A stretch of DNA of 64,000 bases from Deferribacterales bacterium (GTDB taxonomy: Bacteria > Chrysiogenota > Deferribacteres > Deferribacterales > Geovibrionaceae), in contig JBFWJS010000002.1 in NCBI GenBank assembly GCA_050253075.1, positions 96,001 to 160,000 on the forward strand, read 5' to 3'. Below, piece by piece: positions 1,232 to 9,364 of this stretch. A model generated the notes under the pieces. The model had not been told where the DNA came from, searched no databases, and was given only the letters and a program-made list of their open reading frames with translations. The position numbers were made by a program, and so were the translations under genes. Numbering within the stretch: position 1 is the first letter of the stretch; every line of letters starts with the position of its first letter.

Positions 1232-1279
1232 TAGAACTTGTTACAAACTAACGGGCAGGGTTAATCACTCTGCCCTTTT

Positions 1280-1966
1280 TTATTCATTCAGGTTGCGGAA
1301 CTTTGCGCCGTATCTGCTGAATATATCTATCACCTGTTCGGCATCATTCATCTCGAGCTCTATGCGGAAGCGTTTATCGAGCCACCTGCCATTCTTAACC
1401 GGGAACTGTATAATGAGGTCGGCGTCGCCCACTCTTTTCATAACATTCTCTACATCAGCCTCAGAAGGCACTTTCCACAGAGTATGCCGAAGCTCAAAAG
1501 GGACGTTATATTCCCTCAAAATATCCAATGTATCGTACAACTTTTCCAGCTTATACCCTGTGCGGGTGATGAAAGCCATATCATCATCGCTGAAAGCCTT
1601 TATGTCCACAGCGACAAGATCGACCAAGTCAGCCTCGCAAACCTTTCTCAGCTTTGAAGGAAGGCTTCCGTTTGTATCCAGCTTTACCTTGACGCCCTCC
1701 TCTTTCAGACCGGAGAGAAACGGCATCAGACCCTCAGAGACAAGGGGCTCACCGCCTGTGACGGCAACCCCCTCAATATCCTTCCCTGTCAGACCGTTCA
1801 TAAAATCATCCAGCCTGCTGGCCCCCGCCTTTCTATTTACAAGGTCAGGGTTGTGGCAATACCTGCAAAGCAGGTTGCACCCGTGGGTGAAGACCACCGA
1901 CGATATCAGCCCGGGATAATCTATCAGGCTGACAGGGACAAAATCAGCAATATGAATATCTTTCAT
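1280..1966 (-). CDS. nrdG: Anaerobic RNR activating enzyme (radical SAM)
   Basis: GCNLLCRYCHNP motif, TGGEP, DTNG; ATG overlaps the stop of the upstream 56-aa ORF (TGATG). Confidence 0.93.
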   Translation of the reverse strand: MKDIHIADFVPVSLIDYPGLISSVVFTHGCNLLCRYCHNPDLVNRKAGASRLDDFMNGLTGKDIEGVAVTGGEPLVSEGLMPFLSGLKEEGVKVKLDTNGSLPSKLRKVCEADLVDLVAVDIKAFSDDDMAFITRTGYKLEKLYDTLDILREYNVPFELRHTLWKVPSEADVENVMKRVGDADLIIQFPVKNGRWLDKRFRIELEMNDAEQVIDIFSRYGAKFRNLNE

Positions 1967-2136
1967 CACTTCTTAATGTCGAAAGTTTCCCTGTGGGCAA
2001 ACTCTTCTTTTTTTCCTTTGTTCCAGTGGCTTGTGGGGCTGTGGTATCCGACAACACGGCTGTAGACCTCACACTCTTCGCCTTTCACGTTTTTAAGCTC
2101 TTCTTTCAGCTCTGCGATTCTTTCTGTTTTGCTCAT
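1966..2136 (-). CDS. Stand-alone glycyl-radical domain of class III RNR, 56 aa (not in the ORF track)
   Basis: Manual translation MSKTERIAELKEELKNVKGEECEVYSRVVGYHSPTSHWNKGKKEEFAHRETFDIKK; YSRVVGY..W..GK..EF..R is the NrdD C-terminal motif; AGGAGG RBS upstream. Confidence 0.92.
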   Translation of the reverse strand: MSKTERIAELKEELKNVKGEECEVYSRVVGYHSPTSHWNKGKKEEFAHRETFDIKK

Positions 2137-2137
2137 C

Positions 2138-4177
2138 TTATGCCTCCTGTTTCTGGTTTTCTAATTCTCTCAGCTCTGCCTCTATGGCATTTTTGCGCTC
2201 ATCCGCACAGTGGGGACAATTCGCATGTTCCCCCTTGATGTACCCATGCACCGGGCAAACGGAGAATGTCGGCGTGATCGTCACATACGGAATGGCGTAT
2301 TCGTTTGTTATTTTTTGTAAAAGTTTGCTGACGGTCTTCGGCTCGTCCACAGCTTCACCGAGGAAGACATGGAAAACCGTACCGCCTGTATAAAGTGTCT
2401 GCAGCTCGTTCTGGTGTTTCAGCGCTTTGAAAAGCTCACGGGTCTTTTCAACGGGTATCTGGGTCGAGTTCGTATAATATGGTCTGTCTGCCGAACCCGA
2501 GGTTATGATGCCTTCAAGGTCTTTGATATCACGCTTCGCCAGTCGGAAAGATGTCCCCTCCGCAGGTGTCGCTTCGAGGTTATAGAGCATGTCGTCCTCG
2601 TCCTGATACTCCATCAGCTTATCCCGCATGAAGTTAAGTATCTTCACTGCATACTGATGCCCGTCGTCGTGCATGATATCCACACCGATGAAGTTCTGCA
2701 GTGCCTCGTTCATGCCTATGATGCCGATGGTGTTGAAGTGATTCTTCCAGTACTGATTAAAATTCTCTTTGATACCCGACAGATAATATCTCGCATATGG
2801 ATAAAGCCCGTGGTCTGTCAGCTTTTCTAGGATGTTCCGCTTCACACGCAGGCTCTCCCTGGCGAGGAGCATAAGGTGCTCCAGCCTTGCGAAGAAGTCC
2901 CCTTCACTCTCTGCGACAAACCCTATTCTAGGCAGGTTTATGGTGACAACGCCTATGGAGCCAGTAAGGGGGTTCGCTCCGAAGAGCCCTCCGCCTCGCT
3001 TTCTCAGCTCTCTGTTATCCAGTCTCAGCCTGCAGCACATGCTTCTGGCATCGTCGGGGCTCATGTCGCTGTTAACGAAGTTTGCGAAATAAGGTATGCC
3101 GTACTTCGCCGTTGCGCTCATTATGTCGCCCACTATCTCGTGTTCCCAGTCGAAGTCCTTCGAAACATTATATGTAGGTATGGGGAAAGTGAATATGCGC
3201 CCTTTCGCATCCCCCTCTATCATCACTTCCATAAAGGCTTTGTTCAGCATGAACATCTCATTCTGAAATTCTTTATATGTCTTTTCCTGCGGTTCACCGC
3301 CGATGATAACTGCCTCATCCTGAAACATCTTCGGCACAAAGAGGTCGAGTGTCAGGTTTGTAAAAGGGGTCTGAAAGCCTACTCTGGTAGGTACATTTAT
3401 ATTGAATATAAACTCCTGCAGAGCCTGCTTCACATCGTCGTAAGTCAGCTTATCATAGGCGATGAACGGAGCGAGGAGCGTGTCAAAGCTGGAAAATGCC
3501 TGTGCGCCCGCTGCCTCCCCCTGAAGGGTATAAAAGAAATTTACTATCTGCCCCAGAGCAGAGCGGAAGTGCTTCGGCGGTTTGCTCTCCACCTTCCCCG
3601 CTACACCTCGGAAACCTCTGACCAGCAGGTCTTTCAGATCCCATCCACAGCAATATACTGCGAGCAGACCGAGGTCGTGTATGTGCATCTCTCCGCTGAT
3701 ATGGGCGTCTGCCACATTCTTCGGATACACCTTATTCAGCCAGTACTTTGCCGTTACGGTGGATGATATATAGTTGTTCAGCCCTTGCAGGGCGTATGTC
3801 GTGTTGCTGTTTTCATTGATGCGCCAGTCCTCACCGCCGAGGTAATCCTCGACCATCTCTTCGAATCCCGAGAGGGTGTCTTTTATATCACGCAGGTCTG
3901 AACGCTGTTTGCGGTAAATAATATAGGCTTTGGCTGTCTTTGCGTGCCCTCTTTCGATGAGCACTTTTTCAACCTCGTCCTGAATCTCTTCTACAGAGCA
4001 TGCGCCGTATTTACCATATTTATCAATGATCTGACGACATACGGTTATCGACAGCTCCGATGCGGTATTTCTATCTGTACCGCCGACGGACGAAGCCGCC
4101 TTGAATATGGCGCTGGCTATCCTTTCGTTATCAAACGGAACAAACCGCCCGTCTCTCTTCATGACTTTTTCTATCAT
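2138..4177 (-). CDS. nrdD: Class III (anaerobic) ribonucleoside-triphosphate reductase large subunit, lacking the glycyl-radical loop
   Basis: ATP-cone (VMKRDG), HIHDL, YCCGW, SMCCRL, TGGTVFH, CPVH..CPHC zinc site; GGAGG RBS before the ATG at 4177. Confidence 0.95.
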   Translation of the reverse strand: MIEKVMKRDGRFVPFDNERIASAIFKAASSVGGTDRNTASELSITVCRQIIDKYGKYGACSVEEIQDEVEKVLIERGHAKTAKAYIIYRKQRSDLRDIKDTLSGFEEMVEDYLGGEDWRINENSNTTYALQGLNNYISSTVTAKYWLNKVYPKNVADAHISGEMHIHDLGLLAVYCCGWDLKDLLVRGFRGVAGKVESKPPKHFRSALGQIVNFFYTLQGEAAGAQAFSSFDTLLAPFIAYDKLTYDDVKQALQEFIFNINVPTRVGFQTPFTNLTLDLFVPKMFQDEAVIIGGEPQEKTYKEFQNEMFMLNKAFMEVMIEGDAKGRIFTFPIPTYNVSKDFDWEHEIVGDIMSATAKYGIPYFANFVNSDMSPDDARSMCCRLRLDNRELRKRGGGLFGANPLTGSIGVVTINLPRIGFVAESEGDFFARLEHLMLLARESLRVKRNILEKLTDHGLYPYARYYLSGIKENFNQYWKNHFNTIGIIGMNEALQNFIGVDIMHDDGHQYAVKILNFMRDKLMEYQDEDDMLYNLEATPAEGTSFRLAKRDIKDLEGIITSGSADRPYYTNSTQIPVEKTRELFKALKHQNELQTLYTGGTVFHVFLGEAVDEPKTVSKLLQKITNEYAIPYVTITPTFSVCPVHGYIKGEHANCPHCADERKNAIEAELRELENQKQEA

Positions 4178-4374: not shown

Positions 4375-4520
4375 TATTGCAGGTCAGGTATCCTGGCTTA
4401 CCATCATCCTACTTGCCTCACCTTCCCGTTTTCACAGTGGTTTAAAGAGGCTTTCGTCCGGAATACAGTTGCGGGGGCAGCGTCGGATTTAAACCGAGCT
4501 TCCCTGAATCCTACTTCTGG
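4375..4520 (-). ncRNA. Cobalamin riboswitch upstream of nrdD
   Basis: Minus strand reads AGGGAA..CGGT..AATCCG..GCTGCCCCCGCAACTGT...CCACTG..GGGAAGG...AGCCAGGATACCTGACC (B12 box). Confidence 0.93.
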
Positions 4521-4563: not shown

Positions 4564-6045
4564 TTATTTAAGACAGAGCGGGAGGAATGTCAGGGTATTT
4601 CTACCGCTGTTTTTCGAACGGTAGAGAGCTTCATCAGCAGTATCAATGATATTCGACGCTGTGATCTTTCTCTCGCCTACGTATGTGGTGCATCCGACAC
4701 TGGCTGTGACCTTCACAATATCTTCCCCTGCCACGCAAGAGCTCCTGCTTATCTGGTCTCTTATGCGGTCGCCGAAGAGCTCTGCGCCCTTTCTGTCTGT
4801 GTCGGGGAGGAGCACAATGAACTCTTCGCCTCCGTATCTGGCGAAGACGTCCTCACGGCGGAGCATCATTGTCACATGCTCAGTGAAGCACTTCAGCACC
4901 ATGTCGCCTACGCTGTGTCCCCAGCGGTCGTTAACCTGTTTAAAAAAATCGATATCTATCATAAACACTGAAAAAGGCGAACGCTCCATACGGCTGCGTG
5001 CTATGTGATAATTCAGCTTCTCGGCAAAGGCCCGCCTGTTCATCACACCTGTCAGCGGGTCGATCATCGCCTCGGTTTTCAGCTTTTCTTCCGTCTCTTT
5101 CCTGTCGAGAATGTCCACGACAATCCCCGCAAGCATGGTCTGCACGCCCGATGCATCGAAGTGTGCGTTGCCTATTATCTCTACCCATTTATACGCACCG
5201 TCGGACTTCATCACTCGGATATCCTGACGGATGCTTCTGTCTATACGGCTCATGCCTATACGGAAAAAGCGTAAGATCTGCTTTCTTTCACCGGGATGGA
5301 CAATTTTCAGCACGTTCCGAAGGGAATACTCGGCGGAGTGTATATTTGTAAGGGGCACGTCCGCTATGCCCGAGCCGAATTTGATATGCCATGTCTTCAG
5401 ATCGAGAGACCACAGCCCACTCTCTTTTACACTGTTAAGTGCGCTGAACTGCTTCTCCCTCACTGTCATCTGGTTACGCAGGATCATATTCTCCATGATG
5501 AGCCCCGCCATCCTCAGAAACGCTATCTCGGATGCTGTCCACTCACGGGGGTTTACACAGTCGTCATACCCCAGCACGCCCCACCACTCGCCGTTTACAT
5601 AAAGCGGAACGGTCAGCATGGATAATATAGCCTGTGATGCTATATCTTCCTTAAGGAAATCTGCTCCTAGCCTGTCCGTTACGATGCTCTGCCACTCCCC
5701 ACGCTGACGGCTCTCCATCAGCCTGCGATAGTTGCCCTCGCCCAAAGGATTAGTAAACATATTAAATTTCGACAGACCAAGCTGGATATACTTAGGGTCG
5801 GACGCCCATTCGAAGATATAGTCCTGTGTGATGTGTTCGTCGGTGAGGTTCATAAGCTGGAAGACCCAAACCCTGCTCACATCGAAATGCTCGCCCAGAG
5901 TTTTAAGCAGGACATTCACGCCGTCCGGCCAGACCTCGCCTGTCATCAGGCTTTCAGCACATGACGCAAGTTCAGTAAGAAACTGGATATCCTTAGCTTC
6001 TGATTCGATATTTAGATTTTTGAGTTTCCCGCATTTGAATCCCAT
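4564..6045 (-). CDS. GAF-PAS-GGDEF diguanylate cyclase
   Basis: N-terminal GAF, PAS-like segment, DPLTG, DIDFFKQVND, RRED I-site and GGEEF. Confidence 0.9.
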   Translation of the reverse strand: MGFKCGKLKNLNIESEAKDIQFLTELASCAESLMTGEVWPDGVNVLLKTLGEHFDVSRVWVFQLMNLTDEHITQDYIFEWASDPKYIQLGLSKFNMFTNPLGEGNYRRLMESRQRGEWQSIVTDRLGADFLKEDIASQAILSMLTVPLYVNGEWWGVLGYDDCVNPREWTASEIAFLRMAGLIMENMILRNQMTVREKQFSALNSVKESGLWSLDLKTWHIKFGSGIADVPLTNIHSAEYSLRNVLKIVHPGERKQILRFFRIGMSRIDRSIRQDIRVMKSDGAYKWVEIIGNAHFDASGVQTMLAGIVVDILDRKETEEKLKTEAMIDPLTGVMNRRAFAEKLNYHIARSRMERSPFSVFMIDIDFFKQVNDRWGHSVGDMVLKCFTEHVTMMLRREDVFARYGGEEFIVLLPDTDRKGAELFGDRIRDQISRSSCVAGEDIVKVTASVGCTTYVGERKITASNIIDTADEALYRSKNSGRNTLTFLPLCLK

Positions 6046-6110: not shown

Positions 6111-7085
6111 TTACAAACGTTTAAAAAGGTCAAGGAGCCTCTTTGATGCGGTTGAAGGAGTTGTTAGCCCCTGTACGACAGCTTCCTGAATCTGCGGAAG
6201 CATCGCCTGAACATTCTTGTTGTTAACAAACATGTCTTTCAGATCGTCCATGACCATAGTCCACAGCCAGTCCACAGACTGCTTCTTACGCTTTTCTGCA
6301 AACTCTCCGCTCTCGGTCAGCTTTTCCCTGTATTCACAGACCATATCCCACACGGCATCTATCCCTTCGTGATAAAGCGCACTGGTGAGCAGGACGGGCA
6401 CTATCCAGTTCTTAGACTTCGGACGGAGGATATGCAGAGCATTGATATACTGCCCCTTCGCCAGCTCGGCCTTTGGTCTGTTGTCCCCTTCGGCTTTGTT
6501 TATGACTATTGCGTCGGCTATCTCCATAACGCCTTTTTTGATCCCCTGCAGTTCGTCGCCCGCATTGGCAAGCTGTAAAAGCATGAAGAAATCAACCATA
6601 GACGCCACGGTTATCTCCGACTGACCGACACCGACAGTCTCCACAAGTATCACATCATACCCCGCCGCTTCGCAGAGGAGCATTGTCTCTCGTGTCTTTT
6701 TCGCCACACCGCCGAGGGTCTTGCCCGCAGGGGAAGGACGTATAAAGGCATTCTCGTCTCTGGACAGGTCTTCCATACGGGTCTTATCCCCGAGGATAGA
6801 TCCCCCCGTAAGCTGAGACGAAGGATCGACAGCCAGCACGGCGACCTTATAGCCTTTTGCTGTTAGAGATTTACCGAAAGACTCGATGAATGTTGATTTC
6901 CCTACACCGGGGACCCCTGAGATACCTATACGGATGGACTTACCCGTATGGGGGAGTATCTTATCCAGAAGCTGCGAGGCGGCCTCGTGATGCTCCGGAT
7001 TTGAGCTTTCGATAAGTGTGATGGCTCTTGATAAGGGGCGAAGTTTCCCCTGTAAGAGCCCTTCGGCAATCTTGTCTGTGTCCAT
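6111..7085 (-). CDS. meaB: Methylmalonyl-CoA mutase-associated GTPase
   Basis: GVPGVGKST, AVDPSS, GGSILGDKTRM, ETVGVGQSE. Confidence 0.95.
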   Translation of the reverse strand: MDTDKIAEGLLQGKLRPLSRAITLIESSNPEHHEAASQLLDKILPHTGKSIRIGISGVPGVGKSTFIESFGKSLTAKGYKVAVLAVDPSSQLTGGSILGDKTRMEDLSRDENAFIRPSPAGKTLGGVAKKTRETMLLCEAAGYDVILVETVGVGQSEITVASMVDFFMLLQLANAGDELQGIKKGVMEIADAIVINKAEGDNRPKAELAKGQYINALHILRPKSKNWIVPVLLTSALYHEGIDAVWDMVCEYREKLTESGEFAEKRKKQSVDWLWTMVMDDLKDMFVNNKNVQAMLPQIQEAVVQGLTTPSTASKRLLDLFKRL

Positions 7086-7159
7086 AGTATCCTTTAAAAA
7101 CAAAATCCCCCTCAGTCCCCCTTAAAGCAAGGGGGAAGAGAGGGAATATTATAAATTTC

Positions 7160-7220
7160 GTCATTCTGAGCATAGTGAATAATCTGACAGCGCAGATCCT
7201 TCGCAAAAGCTCAGGATGAC
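7160..7220. repeat. REP-like palindromic element (GTCATTCTGAG...CTCAGGATGAC)
   Basis: Inverted terminal repeats immediately after the mutase stop codon. Confidence 0.75.
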
Positions 7221-7222
7221 AA

Positions 7223-9364
7223 TTATTTTTTCGCTTTGATAGCTTCCAGAGTCTTTTTAGCTGACTCTGTGATCGGTGTTCCCGGTCCGAAGACGCACGC
7301 AGCACCTGCGGCATAAAGCTCGTCGTAGTCCTGACGGGGGATAACTCCTCCGCAGACAACCACGATGTCCTCAGCATCGAGCTTTTTCAGCTCCTGTACC
7401 AGCTGAGGGATTAGAGTCTTATGACCGGCGGCCAGTGAAGATACGCCCACTACATGCACGTCGTTCTCCACAGCCATCTTCGCAGCCTCTTCAGGTGTCT
7501 GGAAGAGCGGGCCTACATCCACATCGAAACCTGCGTCCGCATAAGCAGAGGAAACGACCTTCGCCCCTCTGTCGTGACCGTCCTGTCCCATCTTAGCGAC
7601 GAGGATACGAGGTCTGCGTCCTTCTTTCTTTTCGAATGCTTCTATGTCCGCTTTGAGAGCGTTAAACTCTGCATCATCTTCAAACATTGAACCGTATGCT
7701 CCTGAAACCAGCTTTATCTCTGCTTTGTGTCTGCCGAAGACCTTTTCCATCGCATCGGATATCTCGCCGACGGATGCTCTCAGTCTTGCGGCTCTTACAC
7801 AGAATTCGAGCAGGTTGTCGCTGTTATTCTCACACGCCTTTGTGATGTCGTCCAGAGCTTTCCGGCATGCTGCCTCGTCTCTGTCAGCTTTCATCTTATC
7901 AAGGCGTCTGATCTGTGATTCACGCACGGCTGTGTTGTCGATGTCGAGAACCTCGATAGGGTCTTCCTTCGCCAGCTTGTATTTGTTTACGCCGACGATG
8001 ACATCTTTACCGCTGTCGATAGCCGCCTGTTTTTTCGCTGCTGATTCTTCGATCTTCAGCTTAGGCATGCCTGATTCGATAGCTTTTGTCATACCGCCCA
8101 TCTTCTGAATCTCTTTGATCTCCTCACGAGCTTTGTCGATGAGAGCCTGTGTGAGAGACTCGATGTAGTATGAACCGCCCATAGGGTCTACGACCTTCGT
8201 AATGCCTGTCTCCTCCTGTATCACGAGCTGAGTATTACGCGCGATACGTGCGGAGTGGTCTGTCGGCAGTGCGATAGCCTCGTCAAGGGCGTTTGTATGG
8301 AGTGACTGTGTACCGCCGAGAACGGCAGCCATAGCCTCTATTGTTGTTCTGATAACGTTGTTGTACGGGTCCTGCTCTGTGAGAGACCAGCCAGATGTCT
8401 GGCAGTGTGTACGCAGAGCCTTGCTCATAGGGTTCTTCGGTTTGAACTCTTCCATCAGCTCAGCCCAGAGGAAACGTGCCGCTCTCAGCTTTGCTATCTC
8501 CATGAAGAAGTTCATGCCTATGGCGAAGAAGAATGAAAGGCGCGGAGCAAAGGAGTCTATGTCGAGACCTTTCTCTACCGCAGCTTTAACATATTCCAGA
8601 CCGTCAGCCAGCGTGAATGCAAGCTCAAGCACGTTGTTCGCACCCGCCTCCTGAATGTGGTACCCGGAGATGGATATGGAGTTGAACTTAGGCATATATT
8701 TACTGGTGTATTCTATAATGTCGGAGATTATTCTCATAGAAGGTGCAGGTGGATAGATGTATGTGTTTCTAACCATGAACTCTTTCAGGATGTCGTTCTG
8801 GATGGTTCCTGCGAGCTTCTCCTGAGGCACACCCTGCTCTTCCGCAGCGACTATATACATAGCCATAACGGGGAGCACGGCTCCGTTCATCGTCATAGAA
8901 ACAGAAACATCGCCCAGCGGAATCTCGTCGAAGAGTATCTTCATATCCTCGACAGAATCGATGGCAACGCCTGCCTTACCAACGTCTCCCACTACCCTCG
9001 GGTGGTCGGAGTCGTATCCTCTGTGTGTGGCGAGGTCGAATGCTACGGAAAGCCCCTGCTGACCGGCCGCCAGATTTCTTTTGTAAAATGCGTTGGACTC
9101 CTCCGCAGTGGAGAATCCCGCATACTGTCTGACTGTCCACGGACGTCCCGCATACATGCTGGCTCTCGGGCCTCTCATGTATGGAGCAAATCCGGGGAGA
9201 GTATTGATATTTTCAAGTTTCTCAAGGTCTTCAAGAGTGTACAGAGGCTTAACATTTATCCCCTCGGCTGTCGCCCACTGGAGCTTATCAATGTTTTCCT
9301 GCTTTATCTCTTTAGCTGCTTGACGCTCCCACTCCTGAATGGTCTTCTTTTCGTAATTCGCCAT
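7223..9364 (-). CDS. scpA: Methylmalonyl-CoA mutase (B12-dependent)
   Basis: [21 protein letters not shown] cobalamin-binding motif. Confidence 0.97.

Follow-up and report, generated by a model that had tools for sequence, protein, structure and literature searches.

The split nrdD locus

The window, i.e., the whole 64,000-nt stretch of the Deferribacterales genome analysed here, carries three adjacent genes on the reverse strand: a gene for the large chain of a ribonucleotide reductase (RNR) belonging to class III, a very small gene and a gene for the NrdG activase (Table 1). A single base (2137) separates the nrdD stop codon from the ATG of the small gene, and the small ORF lies in the +1 frame. 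The AGGAGG of the latter (2148-2143) is located 6 nt ahead of its ATG, and purine-rich sites precede the small gene in relatives as well. The ATG of nrdG at 1966 overlaps the stop codon of the small gene (TGATG); translation might alternatively begin from the in-frame GTG at 1969. The large chain ends with ...CPVHGYIKGEHANCPHC followed by 22 residues, without an RVxGY motif. The first-pass annotation had described an NrdD that ends after its zinc site and lacks RVxGY, and beside it a separate 56-aa ORF with YSRVVGY, a ribosome-binding site of its own and the overlap with nrdG; the coordinates bear out both descriptions. Gly motif and barrel, which share one polypeptide in a one-chain NrdD, are parted here by the stop codon at 2140-2138, with no indel.

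Table 1. Features of the locus and its surroundings (window coordinates)
Feature	Position	Strand	Details
nrdD, large chain, 679 aa	2138..4177	-	ATG 4177, TAA 2140-2138
Small chain gene, 56 aa	1966..2136	-	ATG 2136, stop TGA 1968-1966
nrdG, activase (NrdG2 type), 228 aa	1280..1966	-	radical SAM CxxxCxxC; TIGR02495, PF04055
AGGAGG ribosome-binding site of the small gene	2143..2148	-	from sequence; within the final nrdD codons
Cobalamin riboswitch aptamer, 5' of nrdD	4386..4505	-	Rfam RF00174, 81 bits, E 2.5e-19
C-terminal amphipathic helix, large chain residues 658-679 (proposed docking helix)	2141..2206	-	heptad pattern in relatives, predicted interface
Hairpin directly 3' of the nrdG stop, between convergent genes	1253..1275	.	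terminator-like on + strand only
Neighbour, TPR protein	33-1181
Neighbour, GAF-PAS-GGDEF protein	4564-6045
Neighbours, MeaB-like and methylmalonyl-CoA mutase-like genes	6111-9364		MeaB and mutase names presumed from sequence

Results of profile searches showed that the two chains are complementary, since the Pfam NRDD model (PF13597) aligned with the large chain over model positions 1-532 and with the small ORF over 531-562 (E 3.9e-9, above the cut-off). The large chain carries an ATP cone (PF03477) at residues 4-93 and exceeds the curated cut-offs of NF006126 PRK08270 (1027 bits vs. 548) and TIGR02487 (539 vs. 326), and the nrdG product matches TIGR02495 (150.5 bits, cut-off 131) and PF04055. 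The class III RNR features, i.e., barrel, finger-loop motif, zinc site, Gly motif (on the 56-aa protein) and radical SAM activase, are all present. In addition to the ATP cone and barrel the large chain holds an NSN flap, an HIHD motif and an SMCCR finger loop (C381, C382), the cysteines of which are invariant in 21 of 21 large chains, but no Gly loop. The putative zinc site, C641/H644/C654/C657, is likewise invariant in the 21 sequences. In the first-pass annotation the glycyl-radical domain was taken to be separate. This holds for the Gly loop and tail and fails for the zinc site: in the available text on P. copri NrdD (PMC11226230) the domain comprises the zinc site and the Gly loop, and as the former remains on the large chain here, only Gly loop and tail are detached.

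The small chain consists of an N-terminal helix (residues 3-17), a strand with C22, the YSRVVGY loop with the presumed radical Gly30 and a C-terminal tail. T. maritima NrdD (4COI/4U3E) has a Gly loop to which the small chain shows a weak profile match (E 0.03). In 21 of 21 aligned orthologues G19, C22, YSRxVGYH, W38, N39, K42, E45, F46 and R49 are invariant, and for 18 close pairs among 26 orthologues dN/dS was 0.034 in the Gly-loop part and 0.16 in the N-terminal part, which indicates that the small ORF is more than a chance reading frame. Close homologues are labelled Deferribacterales or Geovibrio, and the peptide is entered in databases simply as a ribonucleoside-triphosphate reductase, so that the two-gene layout is hidden there. 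Cys22 (2071-2073) was modelled beside the zinc ligands C641 and C654. It is also common in fused forms and missing from some (L004, L092); its frequency in the species-genome scan described below is biased because the search pattern required it.

Promoter and terminator scans of the region returned site numbers at the chance level, the hairpin at 1253..1275 included. An NrdR-box-like pattern gave 33 matches vs. 47 expected, none of them useful.

Integrity of the junction and conservation in the order

No indel was found at the junction in any of four sequencing runs, the contigs of which span the whole of 1800-2500 without a gap. One run (X1) is possibly the source of the assembly; the others (X3, X4 and X10) come from other studies and show 12-17 substitutions. 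The only substitution listed within the small ORF falls on the third position of a Gly codon. None of 23 runs listed as containing the sequence is an RNA run, which speaks neither for nor against expression. The genome is 99.89% complete and contains one nrdD and one Gly-loop gene.

Our survey of the order covered 63 genomes, 36 of them with any NRDD match; the best 30 loci were examined, one of which was ended by a contig edge. Among the 29 full nrdD loci 28 were split and one was fused. The distance between the two genes in the split loci (n = 28) ranges from -8 to +519 nt, and frames 0, 1 and 2 occur 4, 16 and 8 times, respectively. The 519-nt interval (L003:3172-3690) gave no Rfam match. 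Two of the 28 split loci (L023, L027) encode an unrelated, single-cysteine NrdD (MGCR, with an RRITGY loop) together with a different peptide, and have no docking helices. Reads across the junction and synteny in relatives had both been proposed at first pass as checks; the former gave no indel fusing the ORFs and the latter showed that the relatives are by no means all fused, in agreement with that annotation.

The predominance of split loci, the spread of gap lengths and the use of all three frames exclude assembly error and recoding. That the locus is misassembled or a decaying pseudogene is next to inconceivable: the genome does have NrdJ as an alternative, yet the intact junction in all runs, the order-wide conservation and the purifying selection speak against it. 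Synthesis of a single polypeptide by frameshifting or readthrough, which the distance of only 1 nt at this locus might suggest, is hardly more credible, given the three frames and long gaps in the order, the strong ribosome-binding site before the small gene and the lack of any X XXY YYZ heptamer within 160 nt around the junction. Moreover, nrdG sits between the two genes in 12 of the 70 split loci examined overall, which rules out recoding at these loci.

B12 represses B12-independent RNRs. Of 20 related nrdD loci, 19 share the cobalamin riboswitch upstream of nrdD, the exception (L023) being of the other NrdD type, and a gene for a B12-dependent NrdJ lies in the genome some 32 kb ahead of the window (G000:C2:63193-64593; L136:1207-3501). 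Most likely the riboswitch turns the operon on when NrdJ cannot work, and this context fits a working operon. At the same time, NrdJ could make NrdD dispensable, as only the above-mentioned 36 of 63 genomes have an NRDD match.

Probable two-chain assembly and the history of split and fused forms

Taken together, the locus very probably encodes a class III RNR that depends obligately on two chains and belongs to the double-cysteine (SMCCR, PRK08270) type. A two-chain enzyme had already been proposed in the first-pass annotation and is now well supported by the junction without indel and by the 28 split loci among 29 in the order. It shares with the one-chain NrdD/NrdG systems of T. maritima (4COI/4U3E), P. 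copri and phage T4 the barrel, ATP cone, NxN flap, double-Cys finger loop, zinc site, RVxGY loop and radical SAM activase. It differs from them in that Gly loop and tail are encoded by a separate gene and two added helices flank the cut.

Judging from the overlaps, large chain, peptide and NrdG would be made from coupled genes, and NrdG, by family knowledge, would take the hydrogen from Gly30 of the peptide. The peptide is predicted to restore a normal C-terminal domain in trans, with its residues 20-26 paired to the large chain's zinc-site strands, the Gly loop inserted into the barrel and the tail placed over the flap. The helix pair of large-chain residues 658-679 and peptide residues 3-17 would substitute for the lost 6-residue linker, as their co-occurrence and the model suggest. 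Catalysis would then be ordinary, with transfer from the Gly radical to the finger-loop Cys and on to the NTP.

The predicted complex of large-chain residues 100-679, zinc and the peptide scored 0.85 vs. 0.02 for the best control; 116 of 157 solved pairs came up to the mark and so did 2 of 215 mismatched ones, counts that are only roughly valid here. Such a prediction, too, had been suggested at first pass, and its outcome favours the pairing; halves of a split gene can pass via their likeness to a solved one-chain NrdD, so the score, to which this likeness contributes, is no independent proof. Contact agreement between the runs was at least 90% and partner pLDDT at least 81. All 25 best pairs listed are strand-to-zinc-site contacts, between peptide residues 20-26 and large-chain residues 635-654. 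Further parts of the predicted interface are the flap (124-127), the TPAEG segment (538-541) and one face of each helix (661-676 and 3-14); its confident part names neither C381 nor C382. Pairing of helix with helix is proposed from the helical spacing of the residues in 661-676.

In fused chains the YSR motif is separated from the last CxxC by 6-11 residues (29 of 29). At the present locus a 22-residue amphipathic tail forms the end of the large chain and a similar stretch opens the peptide, and these helices have no counterpart in the 29 fused relatives examined. According to a heptad score, both helices occur in 48 of the 70 split loci, neither in 20 and the peptide helix only in 2; the score is crude and its threshold was chosen after the sequences had been inspected. 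The 48 loci with both helices are related, so the pattern comes down to three or four clades and no statistical test is attached to it.

One could envisage that the split serves activation or control, either because NrdG reaches the Gly of a free peptide more easily or because the supply of peptide limits the amount of active enzyme. According to the available text of PMC11226230, the docked state of P. copri NrdD buries the Gly completely and the domain is mobile. At the present locus the peptide gene is coupled to nrdG, and it lies 3' of nrdG in the 12 loci mentioned above. However, YfiD needs a region of its partner for good activation (PMC8683613, accessible portion), and we consider such a role improbable.

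To see the split in a wider frame, species genomes were scanned with the peptide alignment. The best 80 of at least 600 matches were kept, and the counts therefore give no estimate of prevalence: a split was seen in 42 of these loci and a fused gene in 26, a further 2 had a fused gene plus an extra small one, and 10 had no NrdD end in the locus. Split forms were found in Elusimicrobiota, Spirochaetia, Halanaerobiales, Synergistota, Thermodesulfobacterium and Thermoplasmata. A tree was built from 87 large chains, trimmed before the trait (12 of 99 loci were omitted as short, broken or masked). On this tree, 7 changes (at least 5 forced) have to be assumed for the fused label and 4 (at least 3 forced) for the helix-type split. 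Two fused sequences group with split ones: L112 with L074 and L093 at a support of 99, L106 with L094 at 100. L112, fused and devoid of helices among split helix-type relatives, is likely a re-fusion. A single origin of the helix-type split was tried and rejected (AU p 1.8e-51; 9e-6 with L112 added; quick tree of 37 hand-picked rows). With one helix-type clade rejected, repeated fusion, fission or peptide-gene transfer is needed.

Such alternation of split and fused states on the large-chain tree would be expected also of neutral fission, in which the break fell in a linker that tolerates it, the two halves kept their ability to assemble and the helices compensate without any benefit. This explanation appears rather unlikely to us, though less so than a regulatory role: it leaves unaccounted for the orphan copies, the copies beside an intact NrdD and the peptide-only phages described below, and in the same order the unrelated MGCR NrdD (L023, L027) is split as well.

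Possible exchangeability of the peptide and relation to known spare parts

We tentatively propose that the two-chain enzyme represents a widespread class III RNR with its glycyl radical on an exchangeable peptide, such that O2 would destroy the peptide only, the host would hold spares and phages would carry copies with a host-matched docking helix. This idea, plausible but somewhat short of probable, adds to the two-chain model: O2 would cleave at Gly30, the pieces would leave and a fresh peptide would restore activity. An exchangeable radical subunit, with damage by O2 confined to a small peptide, had been put forward at first pass, and it stays a conjecture. By analogy with YfiD and T4 Y06I, extra host copies could conceivably be spares, and phage copies could keep the host enzyme running.

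Ten genomes were searched for orphan copies, all chosen for an orphan-looking, doubled or re-fused locus. Six of them, five Elusimicrobiaceae and one other (G063-G067, G071), contain an operon copy and a remote orphan copy; G064 has also a second NrdD that covers the whole model. In G068 an intact NrdD is accompanied by a remote zinc-finger/Gly-loop gene, and in G069 and G070 an intact NrdD is followed by a zinc/Gly-loop gene with a near-identical loop. The tenth genome has fused NrdD only. Among the best 80 loci on viral contigs, 19 were fused, 5 split with nrdD near, 29 alone with short flanks and 2 at an edge, and in 25 the small gene had neither nrdD nor nrdG in the flanking 3 kb or more on each side. 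Ten of these 25 records were searched over their full length: the small gene was the sole match in each, and 6 of the ten are at least 90% complete. Several peptide-only records carry the helix type. These extra copies, the peptides beside an intact NrdD and the peptide-only phages make exchange plausible.

Several points weigh against exchange. The genomes and phage records with orphan copies were selected for their orphan look, and some of the phages may encode nrdD in unassembled parts. The present genome has one copy, arranged for 1:1 coupled translation, and one copy is found in 29 of 30 genomes of the order with a match. The stub left by cleavage (residues 1-29) would retain helix and strand; it may obstruct the site, being kept there, possibly, by the docking helix. 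The exception in the order is L006 (G017:C105:954-1070), with a partial second copy of the peptide gene that has no start and lies about 400 nt downstream.

The closest parallels of an exchangeable peptide are YfiD/GrcA and T4 Y06I, the spare parts of pyruvate formate-lyase (available text of PMC8683613 and PMC13450708), which are likewise small stand-alone radical-Gly proteins with host and phage versions. In contrast to GrcA, the peptide matches NRDD, PF01228 gives no match at the locus, and the peptide is the sole source of the Gly, as the genome has no intact one-chain NrdD. No alignment was obtained between the peptide and the genome's own PFL-type Gly domain. GrcA stands beside an intact one-chain enzyme; this arrangement is absent here and present in G068, G069 and G070. 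We do not regard the peptide as a GrcA, yet it may act in a similar way. In split class II NrdJa/NrdJb the C-terminal part of an RNR is also a separate chain, the difference being the class (PMC9669993, available portion).

In the texts available, 'split' in the RNR and glycyl radical enzyme literature denotes class II NrdJa/NrdJb, a reannotated cyanophage gene pair, or something unrelated (PMC9669993, PMC4390871, PMC11226230, PMC13450708, PMC8683613, PMC8365446, bioRxiv 10.1101/2022.04.23.489257). We found no description of a split NrdD in the literature searched, mostly main texts of non-subscription papers, and an earlier mention may exist. As far as the accessible part of a 2026 review goes, formate lyases are the only glycyl radical enzymes with identified spare parts, those of others being yet to be determined (PMC13450708), and YfiD and Y06I are the only validated ones in the accessible part of PMC8683613. 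If true, exchange of the peptide would make this the first glycyl radical enzyme beyond formate lyases to have a spare-part system, and the oxygen-sensitive part of an enzyme that makes DNA building blocks may be replaceable. The family offers three natural test cases, i.e., the obligate split, an intact NrdD with an extra peptide, and the phage peptides, and a synthesizable 56-mer substrate of NrdG would ease the study of class III RNR activation and radical transfer.

Small proteins with CxxC...CxxC and a Gly loop were observed in genomes with an intact NrdD (L097:3845-4129, L100:3872-4129, L087:3803-4165); these are the best candidates for true spare parts. At two other loci (L033 and L034:2661-4168) an orphan peptide gene lies 3' of genes for a DsbA-like thioredoxin and a metallo-beta-lactamase-fold protein, with a TetR-family gene divergent, the gene calls resting on a Pfam scan of L034.
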